DNA of 64,000 bases, from the NCBI GenBank assembly GCA_964016885.1, contig OZ024743.1:56668001-56732000 (forward strand). Direction: 5' to 3'. Every line of letters starts with the position of its first letter. The stretch's first letter is position 1. Both the position numbers and the translations under genes were made by a program. The stretch comes from Eledone cirrhosa (lineage: Eukaryota). Positions 15,561-32,390 of the stretch are shown in pieces. A model generated the notes under the pieces. It did no database searches. It was given only the letters and a program-made list of their open reading frames with translations, and was not told the DNA's origin.

Positions 15561-15963
15561 CTTTTTAGATAGATACATAGATATAACGTTGCGCCCTTAT
15601 AATATCTGTCTGTATGTCTAGCTGTCTGCATTACGACATTATCACGCTATATATGTGTGTGTGTGTCTATATACGTATATATATATAGTGTGTAACGTTT
15701 TTCGAAATATTTACTCTGCGTTCAGATTGATTTTTTTTAGGTTTCAGAAGATCTCGTTAAGGGTGAAAGCAGCGGTTCTTTGCTTAAACTTTAATCTGTT
15801 ATTTCAATATATATATATATATATATATATATATACTTAAGGTAAATATTGATGCAATTCAATTCAAGCACTCAACGTACTTTTTCCACTTAGGAGTGAC
15901 GGAGTATATATCGAATAAGAAAAAGCGAAGTAGTTTCAGATGTTAAAGTCCTTTAATGATAAT

Positions 15964-16026
15964 GCTGTGATACATATTTCAATGGCGACAGTTCGGTGCG
16001 CCAGTGCCGTGACATCATCAGACAGC
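15964..16026 (-). ncRNA. Type I hammerhead ribozyme motif
   Basis: GCTGT-CTGATGA-long stem II-GAAA-TATGTA-TC-ACAGC. Confidence 0.75.
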
Positions 16027-17491
16027 TTGTTACATAATAAGGTTGTTTCCGAGAGAATCCAAATTGAATCGACATGGGAACGGACAAAGCGTGTGCTCTT
16101 GGGTTCTTCGCCCGTTCCCTTGTGAGTCCCAATTCACCCCCACTGGTCTGCACAGGCGTTGGTCCGAAGGAAGTTGACCATCAACTACCGCAGAGTTCTA
16201 CGAAACTCGCCTAGGTAGGTCTCCCCTCACCCAAACAATGATCCAATCCAACCTGTAATGTGACACGGTTATAGTTTACTGTTAGCCGGCCGAAAGCCAG
16301 TGGGGGTGGGAGAGTATGAGTACCAATAGGTCTCAATACTACCTCTAAATTAAGCATGGACAGTAGAATTGACCATCTCCCGCTAAGAGAAAATATACTT
16401 ATTTTTAGGTATTATTATGGTTTCACAGTGAAGATTATGAATGAGAGTTGGAAATTAAAACTAAAAATTAAAAATCAAAAATCAAAAATCAAAAATTAAA
16501 AAAATTTAAAATTAGAAATTAAAAATTAAAAAAATTACAAGTTAGAATCTAGATTGAAATAAGTAAAGAAATATATGTACATATAATAACTAATAAATAG
16601 GGAGATGTTTAAATTATATTAATAAGTTTTGAAAAGGGATCAATATTAGAGATATACTATCCACATATTGAACGATAGTACTGAATAGTAGATTACAGTA
16701 TGGAACGTAGTAATTAGGCGAATACATAGTTAATATCTCTATCAGATGGGAAAAAAATACAAAATATGAAATACGCAAAAAAAAAATACAAAAAATACAT
16801 AGATGCAAAATGAGATACATATGTAAAATGAGGTATGAGATATATATATGAGAGACATATACGAGCATGGAAATGAGGGTATACGTGGTTAACGTGATTG
16901 TCAATTTATCCATATAATGATTTATTGTCTGGTGAAGTGAGGGGGCTTCTGTTCAAGGCCCCTGTGCAAATGCAATTTGCTGCAGGAATATAGGGGTTTA
17001 TCGTTGTTTTTATTTCAGCGTATTTATCCTGTCGAAAGTTAGTTTATAATTTTATGTCCGTCCAGTACCAGGGATTTCCAGTGTGTGCAATCCATCCCCA
17101 TGTTAGAGGGAATTTCCGGGAGTAGCTGATGGCTGGTTCCTCTCTTCTCCACTATATCGGTTACACCATAGAACGCTCAACATTTTGGAGCTAAATTCTT
17201 AAGGTTTACGCTGAAATAAAAATAACGATGCAATTCAAATCAAGCACTCAACGTACTTTTTCCACTTAGGAGTGACGGAGTTTCCATCTGATAGAGATAT
17301 TAACTATGTATTCGCCTAATTACTACGTTCCATACTGTAATTACCCTCCATTCTACTGTACGGTACTATCGTTCAATATGTGGATAGTATATCTCTAATA
17401 TTGATCCCCTTTCAAAACTTATTAATATAATTTAAACATCTCCCTATTTATTAGTTATTATATGTACATATAGTTATTATATGTACATAAA

Positions 17492-17680
17492 GGGCGGTGG
17501 ATTGGCAGTATCGGTAGAGGGTCGGACGCCATGCTTTCCAGCATAGTTACGTCCCTTTACGATCTGAGTTCAAATCCCGCCGAGGTTGACTTTGCCTTTC
17601 ATCCTTACGGGGTCGATAAAATAAAGTACCAGTAATGCACTGGGTAATTGCTGGCCTTGTGCCTAAAGTAGAAACAATTA
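17492..17680 (+). mobile_element. Full-length young tRNA-derived SINE
   Basis: TGGCAGTATCGG A-box, GAGTTCAAATCC B-box, GCCTTTCATCC..GGGGTCGATAAA centre, GTAGAAACAATT tail; TSD-like TTATATGTACATA. Confidence 0.9.
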
Positions 17681-18755
17681 TATGTACATATATTTCTTTA
17701 CTTACTTCAATCTAGATTCTAACTTGTAATATTTTAAATTTTAAATTTTTTAAATTTTTGAATTTTGATTTTTAATTTTTAGTTTTAAATTCCAACTCTC
17801 ATTCATAATCTTCACTGTGAAACCATAATCATCATCACCATGATGATGATGAGAAGATAGAAGAAGGAGAGAGAGAGAGAAGAGGGAAGACGTAACCGCA
17901 AAAAGGAAAGAACGAAAGAAAGAAAGAAAGAAAGAAAGAAAGAAAAAGGGACATGATGCGTGACCGTTGTTTTCAAATATTACGTCAAATAGAAGCGACC
18001 AATTAAATTCCGTGAAATTTTTAATATCTTCTGTATTTGGTTATGTTTGAGCTAATTATACTAATGTATTATATCAAAATTAAACAATATAAAAATATTT
18101 TCTATAATAATCAGAAGCATAATTCAATTAATAAATATATTCAATATTTTGTTACAAAATTCAAAAATCAAAAACATTTTTACCTATCAAGCAAGTTTAC
18201 AAACATAATAAATATGTATAAGGATATTTACCACAACATATTCGCATATCACCATCAGTATATGCATTTTATATAATGTTTAGAATTATTATCTGAATTA
18301 TTATTTTTACATTATAAATAGTTGTCATTTACTTATAGGATTAATAAGTAGTTATGTTTACTCTTGAAAGTATTATTATTTCGATTTTAATTTCGTAACT
18401 ATATCATAATATAATATATGTAGTTTCCCTATAAAGATTAATATCATGTTAAATATACATTATTAATCCATTTGGATAGAAAGAAAATAATATACGAAGA
18501 ATGTAAACAAAGGGAGGTAATCCATATGTGGTCATTTATGTTATCTAAGTGCTTTGAAAGCCAGAAGATATTTAAACCGCAAGTTCAGAAAATTCTAGTT
18601 ACACAATGACCATTCAAAAAACCGAACTTAGTATAGTGAGCCACATCATGAGATTAATTTACTATATAAAAAAACCGATATACAATTTTAAGGTAACATT
18701 ATATATATAAAAACATTATATATATAATAACAATAATTCACGAATTATTATTAAT

Positions 18756-18928
18756 AATAATTGTTTCTACTTTAGGCACAAGGCCAGCAATTACCCAGTG
18801 CATTACTGGTACTTTATTTTATCGACCCCGTAAGGATGAAAGGCAAAGTCAACCTCGGCGGGATTTGAACTAAGATCGTAAAGGGACGTAACTATGCTGG
18901 AAAGCATGCCGTCCGACCCTCTACCGAT
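18756..18928 (-). mobile_element. Same SINE family
   Basis: Near-identical reverse complement of 17492-17680. Confidence 0.9.
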
Positions 18929-19133
18929 TCCATATTTTTTTCCCTCTTAGTCAGTATTTTTTTCTAAATTTGTATGATGCTTGCAATGTTTTTCCAGGTT
19001 TATGGAAACAAGTTGTTAATTAAATTACCATAATTGGTAATTATTAATAGAGTTTCTAAATTGCAAAGATTGCAATTTGGTGAAATGGAAGCGTTCCGAC
19101 AGGACTCAGAGTTTCTAAGTTTAATCTTTGGTT

Positions 19134-30140: not shown

Positions 30141-30149
30141 ACATATATA

Positions 30150-30216
30150 TATATATTTCAATGACGACACTGGCCATACTGTTCTGTGTGCGAGTATCGT
30201 GACATCATCAGACAGC
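30150..30216 (-). ncRNA. Hammerhead motif truncated at its stem III/cleavage site by a TA tract
   Basis: GCTGT-CTGATGA-stem II-GAAA-TATATA then (TA)n instead of TC-ACAGC. Confidence 0.7.
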
Positions 30217-31440
30217 TTGTTACATAATAAGGTTATGTTTTCGAGGCAATCCAAGTTGAATCGACATGGGAACGGACGAAGTGTGTGCTTTTGGGTTCTT
30301 CATCCGTTCCCCTTTGAGTACCAATTCACCCCCACCGGTCTGCGCAGGCGCATGTCCGAATGAAGTTGACCATTAGCTACCGTAGATATCAACGAAATTC
30401 GCTTAGTCAGTTCACCCTCTCAGCCAAACAATGACCCATCTAGGCCTGTACCATAGTTTACTGCTACCCGTCCCGACTGTGGCAGTCAGCCGAAAGCCAG
30501 AGGGGATGGGAGAGCGTTAGTTTTTACAGTTCACAATACTACCTCTCACCAAGCATGGACAGTACGACTGACTATCAACTCCCAAGAGAAAATATACTTA
30601 ATTCTAGGTATCATGGTTTTACATTGGAAGTTATGAGTGAGTTGGAAATAAAAATTAAAATCCTAAATCAAAAATGATAAATTAAACAATTTAAAAAAAT
30701 TATAAATTAAACAATTAAAAAATTAACAATTAGAAATTTAAAAATTGTGAGAATCCGGATTGAGGTGAGTAAAAAAACATATAGATTGAAGTGAGTAAAT
30801 AATATGGAGAGAGATGTTTAAGTAAGAAGTTCTGAGAGGGGTTCCAATGTCACAGTTACACTATCCACATATTGAACGATAGTGCCGTACATTAGAATGG
30901 AGGGTAAACTACAGTATTCAAAGCAGGTACACAGTCATCATTTCCATCACATGGAATAAAACCAAAGAAAAACAGATATAAAGTACACAAAAGAAAAGAA
31001 CCAATAATGAATAAATGCAAAAACACAGAGTACATATATGCAAAATGATCCATATGATTGTCAATTTGTCAGTGTATAGATTGAACTGAGGAGGCTTCTG
31101 TTCAAAAGCGATTTGGTGCAGGAAAATATGGGTTTATCTTACTTTTTGTTTCCGCATATTTATCCTGCCGAAAGTTACTATTATGTCCGTCTAGTGTCAG
31201 GGGTTTCCATCCCCATGGTAGAGGGTATTTCCAGGGGTAGCTCATGGTTGGTTCCTCTCTTCTCCACCATATCGGTTACATCATAGAGCGCTCAACTAGT
31301 TGGAGCTAAATTCTTAGGGTAAATATTGATGCAATTCAATTCAAGCACTCAACGTACTTTTTCCACATAGGAGTGACGGAGTAAATATCGAATAAGTAAA
31401 AGCGAAGTAGTTTCAGATGTTCAAGTCCTTTAATAATAAT

Positions 31441-31514
31441 GCTGTGATATATATTTCAATGACGACATTGGCCACACTGTTCTGTGTGCGAGTGTCGTGA
31501 CATCATCAGACAGC
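31441..31514 (-). ncRNA. Intact type I hammerhead with extended stem II
   Basis: GCTGT-CTGATGA-TGTCACGACACTCGCACAC-AGAACA-GTGTGGCCAATGTCGTCATT-GAAA-TATATA-TC-ACAGC. Confidence 0.8.
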
Positions 31515-31820
31515 TTGTTACATAATAAGGTTATTTTTCCGAGGCAATCCAAGTTGAATCGACATGGGAACGGACGAAGTATGTGCTTTTGGGTTCTTCA
31601 TCCGTTCCCCTGTGAGTACCAATTCACCCCCACCGGTCTGCGCAGGCGCATGTCCGAATGAAGTTGACCATTAGCTACCGCAGATATCAACGAAATTCGC
31701 TTAGTCAGTTCACCCTCTCAGCCAAACAATGACCCATCTAGGCCTGTACCATAGTTTACTGCTACCCGTCCCGTCTGTGGCAGTCAGCCGAATCGGAAAC
31801 ATAACCTTATTATGTAACAA

Positions 31821-31887
31821 GCTGTCTGATGATGTCACGACACTCGCACACAGAACAGTGTGGCCAGTGTCGTCATTGAAATATATA
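31821..31887 (+). ncRNA. Mirror hammerhead disrupted by a SINE fragment
   Basis: Motif runs to GAAATATATA, then SINE 3' end GTAATGCACTGGG..GTAGAAACAATT (31888-31934). Confidence 0.7.
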
Positions 31888-32390
31888 GTAATGCACTGGG
31901 TAATTGCTGGCCTTGTGCCTAAAGTAGAAACAATTATTATTAAAGGACTTGAACATCTGAAACTACTTCGCTTTTACTTATTCGATATTTACTCCGTCAC
32001 TCCTATGTGGAAAAAGTACGTTGAGTGCTTGAATTGAATTGCATCAATATTTGCCCTAAGTATATATATATATATATATATATATATATATATATATATA
32101 TATATATATATATATATATATATATATATATATATATATATATATATATATATATATATATATATATATATATAACATTTAAGAAAGAAGAGTGACATGG
32201 TTGGCTATACAATAAGGGCTTTATTCACATTGCTGACAATTGTTTCTTTGATCTGGTAGGTCTAGAGTTCGCTACTCGCTTGATGTTGCGTCAATCGAAC
32301 TCCAATACCATCCACTACACGGAGTACTCTAGCTGGACTACATCTAAGTGGACTACCTATAACGATAACCTGTTATCCCGTATATATATA

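Follow-up and report, generated by a model that had tools for sequence, protein, structure and literature searches.

A dispersed, non-coding, hammerhead-bearing element of about 1.3 kb in Eledone cirrhosa that behaves as a non-autonomous Penelope-like element and may be a large retrozyme

Metazoan retrozymes of the non-long-terminal-repeat type and the element described here are alike in being non-coding, low-GC (36–38%) units with a type I hammerhead ribozyme (HHR), in occurring as monomers to multimers and in their proposed dependence on Penelope-like elements (PLEs). Described retrozymes have a canonical HHR with a short, 4-bp helix II and loop-loop contact, self-cleave and accumulate as circular RNA. 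Their units measure 150–450 bp in one account (Cervera and de la Pena 2020, PMC7229834) and 51–972 bp in a survey with a tandem-repeat period limit of 1000 (Li, Clavereau and Pollet 2026, 10.64898/2026.07.22.740005); retrozymes of up to 972 bp are already published as non-autonomous PLEs. Here, an element of this general kind is described from a 64,000-nucleotide stretch of the Eledone cirrhosa genome (assembly GCA_964016885.1, contig OZ024743.1, positions 56,668,001 to 56,732,000 of the forward strand), which is called the window and holds two copies, A and B. The unit spans 1.27–1.7 kb in the family and its relatives and has a GC content below 50%, and it differs from metazoan retrozymes in this size, in a long, bulged stem II with a U.U at its base, and in insertions that are mostly dispersed, truncated and two-armed.

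Among PLEs, the non-autonomous, protein-free MRC1 of Chlamydomonas forms head-to-tail copies and partial tandems resembling pseudo-long terminal repeats (pLTRs), as the present element does in an animal host and with an HHR; elements of the MRC1 type usually resemble the 3′ end of their partner, whereas the unit shares only the HHR class, the tail geometry and two short motifs with its candidate partner (PMC8557442). Like Hydra-clade PLEs, the unit is associated with (TA)n targets and a CUGANGA-type HHR (PMC8557442), and in its own genome it shares with them the stem III, the pair of end classes and the motifs of the tail. Unlike these PLEs, which carry a reverse transcriptase (RT) and a GIY-YIG endonuclease, the unit codes for nothing, and its body has no match to their proteins. 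For Poseidon PAc of Anolis, a PLE protein, predicted to form a dimer, cuts and extends both strands and starts on a junction-spanning template at two internal sites that lie 3′ of the HHR and bound the tail (Frangieh 2024, PMC11167929). The insertions described below appear to follow this arrangement, with a tail of about 74 nt as against 30–40, and the use of one site of each kind per insertion, seen here in genomic data, lies outside the scope of the strand-by-strand in vitro assay of PAc (PMC11167929).

The initial annotation of the window had proposed two diverged copies of a large non-autonomous HHR unit; these are in fact members of a family with more than 1,000 junctions. An exact 26-mer spanning the predicted cut site occurs 1,297 times genome-wide (reversed control, 0), and first-look searches gave 2,640 candidates for the B unit and 3,338 for the A unit, 40 of which were scored for each query. 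Near-full-length copies found with the B query are 91–95% identical. The proposal of a large unit is borne out elsewhere in the genome by 20 non-coding cut-to-cut units of 1265–1364 nt among the retrieved loci, a few duplicated loci included; unit-length non-coding tandems are present, for example, at C1:130.88 Mb, and in neither window copy. In 25 natural A and B units, scanned individually rather than as a consensus, the longest frames have 72–112 aa. Comparison of 11 usable PLE protein pieces with 28 units gave a single match (E=0.68), and no RT and GIY-YIG open reading frame (ORF) collinear with the unit was found in the sampled copies. A sister family, C, when followed upstream, runs back into an HHR and tail of its own after about 1.7 kb; more diverged relatives have periods of about 1.34–1.6 kb, and older gene-free sisters that close on themselves span 1.3–1.7 kb. 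Most copies are short and 5′-truncated, and pLTR-like partial tandems occur. The family is a dispersed, high-copy, non-coding element of about 1.3 kb that bears an HHR and has PLE-type insertion anatomy with putative internal reverse-transcription starts, which the initial annotation had not recognised; it behaves as a non-autonomous PLE and, judged from its sequence, may be a large retrozyme.

Almost all scored 3′ termini (112/116) lie at +43 to +66 or at +128 to +140 past the predicted cut, forming two classes at about +59 and +133, and are followed by (TA)n in 97/116 and by (TC)n in 11. Loose ends of contigs at 31313, 31314 and 31385 agree with both classes; these contigs come from three runs of unspecified kind on one sample and inform on presence and loose ends only. 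Among 134 merged loci, every two-armed insertion (59/59) has one end of each class, where independent choice would give about half mixed pairs, and unpaired ends stand at 36:33. The +59 arm reaches further 5′ in 30/58 pairs, the +133 arm in 24/58, and 4/58 are symmetric; because the +59 arm is often the longer and yet lacks +60 to +133, neither arm is a fold-back copy of the other. At 31 arm-arm junctions the arms overlap by 1–16 nt, and 15/116 of the 5′ ends fall within the 21 nt where the hairpin at unit position 1135 has its base. The two arms of one insertion share 23 rare variants over 28 loci (at least one in 11 loci), as compared with 1.0 expected from random other loci and 1.7 from the nearest other loci. 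Mixed ends are also found in Neptune-type coding families of the same genome (15/15 resolved pairs) and in a Hydra-type HHR family (9/11 pairs). One end of each class, common rare variants and unequal arms together fit the priming of both target strands at two sites on one RNA, and the pairing is likely to reveal how PLEs reverse-transcribe a single RNA into the two strands of a cleaved target. A count of such pairing was not found in a literature search that excluded subscription papers, Repbase and supplements.

In the account that is considered probable as a whole, a dispersed non-coding unit is mobilised in trans by a Hydra-clade PLE with two-site priming on one RNA. The PLE protein would cleave a (TA)n target on both strands, and reverse transcription would be primed at two fixed internal sites of one RNA, +59 and +133 past the predicted cut. 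Each target 3′-OH would take one start site, and each site would be used once on the same RNA. The polymerase that starts at +133 would displace the complementary DNA (cDNA) begun at +59, and the two cDNA 3′ ends would then pair through microhomology, in many cases at the 1135 hairpin, so that a head-to-head palindrome results. L1 twin priming likewise uses a single RNA as template for the two ends of the target, with microhomology joining the cDNAs. In the scheme for the present element, by contrast, each start has a fixed internal position, and the overlap of the arms usually amounts to hundreds of bases.

The two window copies show this anatomy in part (a slash in a motif marks the predicted cut or the insertion end):

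15836 to 17281, minus strand: main arm of copy A, from about unit +65 through the body and the HHR to the +133 end and into (TA)n.
15964 to 16026, minus strand: HHR of copy A, with the predicted cut between 15969 and 15968.
15836 to 15968, minus strand: tail of copy A, +1 to +133, with the ACTCC...GTTGAGTGCT motifs that also occur in Hydra-clade PLE tails.
17278 to 17832, plus strand: second (inverted) arm of copy A, a copy of 16752-16411 in which the HHR and tail end is missing.
17490 to 17681, plus strand: short interspersed nuclear element (SINE) of 192 bp within the second arm of copy A, with a 14-bp target duplication ATTATATGTACATA and a tRNA-like head judged by eye.
30140 to 31792, minus strand: long arm of copy B, a 346-bp partial unit and a full 1298-nt unit, without the short tail that would be expected.
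31441 to 31514, minus strand: the only complete HHR of copy B, with the predicted cut AUC/ACAGC between 31446 and 31445.
30140 to 30216, minus strand: truncated HHR of copy B, lacking the cut site and the 3′ strand of stem I.
31313 to 31445, minus strand: internal tail region of copy B, with two putative reverse-transcription starts at about 31387 (+59) and about 31313 (+133).
30268 to 30311, minus strand: hairpin at unit 1135-1178 (-23.9 kcal/mol), the 5′ arm junction hot spot; a second copy lies at about 31566-31609.
31793 to 32060, plus strand: second arm of copy B, a broken HHR (31821-31887) followed by the tail to the +133 end CCCTAAG/TATA.
31887 to 31937, plus strand: 3′ fragment of a SINE in the second arm of copy B, joined at unit +6.
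37420 to 37556, minus strand: short copy of sister family C, an HHR remnant and tail ending at a +59-type site, beyond the region covered by the initial annotation.

Most of what had been reported for these copies held on self-comparison of the window. The direct repeats of copy B (30149-30494 and 31447-31792), given before as about 345 bp, measure 346 bp at 97.4% identity and an offset of 1298, and the period of about 1376 bp assigned to copy A corresponds to a 62-bp repeat (15844-15905 and 17220-17281) at an offset of 1376. The bodies of A and B, described as homologous, diverged and ORF-free, align at 71% across 1355 columns, with longest stop-to-stop frames of 112 aa in A and 77 aa in B, and each copy has the inverted segment claimed for it (17278-17832 and 31793-32060). 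Both long arms have their sense sequence on the minus strand. The common terminus CC(T/C)TAAG/TATA is likewise present in both, as CCTTAAG/TATA at 15842-15836 (minus strand, A) and CCCTAAG/TATA at 32054-32060 (plus strand, B). It lies 133 nt 3′ of the predicted cut, in copy B on the strand opposite to the long arm, and is likely to be a reverse-transcription start rather than a cut site; this +133 end is the only end kept by either window copy. The two HHRs placed 1298 bp apart in copy B did not stand, since the second is incomplete and has no cut site.

The type I HHR motif, GCUGU-CUGAUGA-stem II-GAAA-UAU(A/G)UA-UC/ACAGC, is found on the minus strand at 31514-31441 and 16026-15964, and its core 17-mer occurs three times in the window as compared with none in 100 shuffles. 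No HHR match was returned by an Rfam search, probably because of the long stem II. The second HHR of copy B (30216 to about 30140, minus strand) stops in the stem III TATA and then gives way to flank, the plus-strand HHR at 31821-31887 is interrupted by the 51-bp SINE piece, and copy A has one HHR. Because no window copy has two complete HHRs, release of a unit-length RNA by double self-cleavage is impossible from either. Across the genome, the core is intact in 138/163 flank-anchored junctions. Over 35 natural copies drawn from A, B and C, the share of paired cells is 89.5%, and two-sided changes occur at 8 pairs, all in stem II; the shuffle control for this pairing can be beaten by related sequences without structure, and slid controls lie far lower. 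The stem II insert measures 34–49 nt, and its first pair is U.U in A and B and G-C in C. Stem III is palindromic, as in the arrangement described for dimer-type cleavage (PMC4209133).

Whether the HHR acts in the life cycle bears on the nature of the template. The template has to span the junction, so that it would be either an HHR-made circle, which on the sequence evidence has slightly less than an even chance, or an uncleaved tandem transcript, for which the chance is slightly better than even. At C1:130.88 Mb, three units that are 5.5–6.3% apart have, pairwise, 4–9 private variants common to the units and the opposite arm (mean 0.5 and maximum 20 among 153 other locus pairs). At least three units were likely copied there in a single event, which again requires a circle or an uncleaved tandem RNA. 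A larger version of the classical retrozyme, in which HHR self-cleavage and ligation yield a 1.3-kb circle and rolling-circle reverse transcription of this circle yields tandems, is compatible with the account given above and differs from it only in requiring the circle; its chance is put at a little under one half. The conserved HHR with its covarying stem II, the palindromic stem III suited to dimer cleavage, the three related units from one event, the arms that exceed one unit (13/118) and the approximately 95% of arms that read across the HHR junction all argue for it. The lack of two complete HHRs in the window copies and the U.U at the base of stem II speak against it, as do reports that HHR cleavage is dispensable for PAc in vitro (PMC11167929) and that 8/9 Xenopus dimers failed to cleave (10.64898/2026.07.22.740005). 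At locus L019 (C1:115.29 Mb), one and the same SINE fragment replaces GAAA and the cut site of the HHR in both repeats; this is a ribozyme-dead unit in a partial tandem, with an HHR-destroying junction in each repeat, and counts against the circle as well. Two further observations did not hold up. An excess of 5′ ends at the cut, 20/202 vs 167/4127 in the raw counts (p=0.0005) and 9/97 in position-chosen loci (p=0.095), is not supported, since about half of the 20 proved on inspection to be chaining artefacts, and the double unit of locus L016, with units 99.85% identical, is a local duplication rather than proof of rolling-circle copying.

The partner that would supply the protein is likely a Hydra-clade PLE, as judged from shared sequence features, and the family described next is the best candidate. 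A coding PLE family with the CxCX5C linker and CxxC/CxH motifs, which are Hydra-clade diagnostics (PMC8557442), has 54,721 first-look candidates. An HHR of the unit's class accompanies 18/30 of its endonuclease loci, in 17 of them 1.0–1.4 kb downstream, and its ends lie near +53/+145. The motif ACTCC...GT(C/T)GAGT(G/T)CT starts at +57 to +64 in the tails of A, B, C and the Hydra-type family, whereas five Neptune-type tails, the tail of PLE2 and a further Hydra-like tail lack it; the unit tail is not shared by five Neptune-type families or by two other PLE tails inspected. Two partners suggested by proximity were rejected: the Neptune-like ORF that adjoins an HHR of family C at L107 was inserted separately, and a Hydra-like endonuclease remnant at window 38045-38344 (minus strand) has its own short-stem HHR (near 37770) and tail.

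A PLE of the young, abundant Neptune type, which has 20,143 candidates, is an unlikely alternative partner; a family of 4,734-bp period is an example. Such PLEs, with RT and GIY-YIG confirmed in those inspected, use (TA)n targets and obey the mixed-end rule in all resolved pairs, but they carry HHRs of other classes (U3-A8-type or short stem II), end at other positions (+124/+165, +80/+143, +122/+164) and lack both the tail motif and an alignment signal. The 4,734-bp family itself (L143-L144, C5:17.09 Mb) has an open 784-aa RT-endonuclease frame; its HHR-like motif is of the U3-A8 type with GCAA replacing GAAA and is possibly inactive, and relatives of this family carry U3-A8 HHRs. Another locus, L145 (C2:359.52 Mb), is a 3,869-bp tandem of a Neptune 3′ half and a different HHR-bearing segment, with five same-strand endonuclease matches.

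That the inverted arm forms when the first cDNA folds back or primes itself, or is copied off an antisense template, and that the endonuclease trims the tail from one end, is disfavoured and improbable. It was proposed earlier for Penelope (PMC3846280), a single template would explain the common variants, and the near-symmetric junctions (4/58) and the junction cluster at the internal hairpin fit it; the longer +59 arms without +60 to +133 do not, and both outer ends adjoin microsatellite at fixed sites. That the unit is the untranslated region (UTR) or pLTR of a coding PLE with 5′-truncated copies, as the predominance of short, truncated copies and the 1.0–1.4-kb Hydra-clade 3′ UTRs of this genome might suggest, is very improbable and is refuted for the sampled copies, in which the unit and family C each close on themselves, the body in B and C is preceded by another HHR and tail and never by an ORF, and all PLE protein matches in 40 position-chosen loci lie outside the unit-homologous segments.

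Several observations weigh against mobilisation in trans by a Hydra-clade PLE with two-site priming. With respect to priming, a few rows of the arm-junction table are chaining artefacts, two of the 11 Hydra-type pairs are short-short, and PAc in vitro showed no start-site difference between strands (PMC11167929). The within-locus arm distance has a median of 2.65%, as compared with 2.56% to the nearest other locus, and common variants could also stem from gene conversion between adjacent arms; one pair of other loci has 20 private variants in common, and several multimers are later local duplications, as in the B-C-B-C repeat at C1:130.88 Mb. Evidence for the partner is affected in that the bipartite tail motif, found in 0/500 shuffles, was defined post hoc and makes this figure optimistic, an 11-nt tail match is equalled by 2–3/100 shuffles, global alignment of the unit tails to Hydra tails is not significant (z at most 1.4), and no coding element with exactly the unit's HHR and tail was found. 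As regards the HHR, the first stem II pair in A and B is unpaired in 19/34, the figure for core conservation, 1.0% as compared with a mean of 4.6% and a median of 2.3%, is biased by locus choice, and folding is no better than that of shuffles (z -1.6, -0.8), which, together with the U.U at the base of stem II, means that the HHR may cleave poorly.

The SINE fragment in copy B marks a hot spot. Exact junctions of the SINE 3′ end with unit +6, 5 nt past the predicted cut, number 318 as compared with 1,297 intact junctions (about 20% of junctions), as against two SINE joins at an ATTAT site that lies about 85 nt further upstream. The insertions at +6 are independent and stacked up to three deep (window 31887-31943; L153-L182). 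The SINE background at ATTATTATT sites is 6/88, and the rate at +6 is two to three times that. A switch of template to SINE RNA at the cut was rejected, since target duplications are as common there (17/28) as elsewhere (24/45). The hot spot mainly reflects the target preference of the SINE and leaves a two- to three-fold excess unexplained.

Other features lie in the window and the sampled loci. Positions 1-11068 of the window are a 43-bp satellite array (257 copies, 95% matches). A broken PLE at 21060-22794 (minus strand) has an RT piece (Pfam RVT_1) and its own short HHR near 21240; pieces of RT and GIY-YIG mark another broken PLE, which is C-rich, at 34834-36600 (plus strand) and 41263-41913 (minus strand), with a 329-bp inverted repeat at 36720-37048 and 40906-41234; and 25123-25587 is a C-terminus fragment of another RT element, without a Pfam match, of which similar pieces occur in several loci. 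Further HHR families are present at 12991-13049, 20290-20350, 20668-20881, 23132-23689, 26138-26206, 26624-26678, 42142-42205 and 43468-43508, in many cases as inverted pairs of short copies within (TA)n; coding status is known for one, and several have in common a stem III of TAT(A/G)TA and, in the tail, the ACTCC...GAGTGCT motif. A retrozyme of classical size, a 424-bp tandem HHR repeat of about 5.5 units (>99%) with inverted flanking arms, was found at L151 4048-6898 (C10:46.60 Mb), and HHR tandems of 470 bp (L149) and 459 bp (L323) are also present.

The family extends HHR retrozyme-like units past 1 kb, beyond the period limit of the 2026 survey, and directs attention to Hydra-clade PLEs as donors. 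Qualitative descriptions exist of a tail on one of the inverted pLTRs (PMC3846280, PMC8557442), and the origin of tandem and inverted PLE insertions with a one-sided tail is treated as an open question (PMC8557442). The pairing rule, the common variants and the unequal arms give a specific model of this origin that is directly testable by the published PAc assay, and a protein-free cargo of 1.3 kb with defined cis signals offers a handle on what the PLE enzyme needs in trans. It is suggested, tentatively, that the units belong to a superfamily of circular-RNA parasites of kilobase size that exploit Hydra-clade PLEs, and that their insertions would reveal a general PLE mechanism, in which a protein dimer holds one RNA at two starts and copies it into both strands of a double-strand break. 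If so, it would be explained why Penelope elements have inverted arms and a tail on one side.

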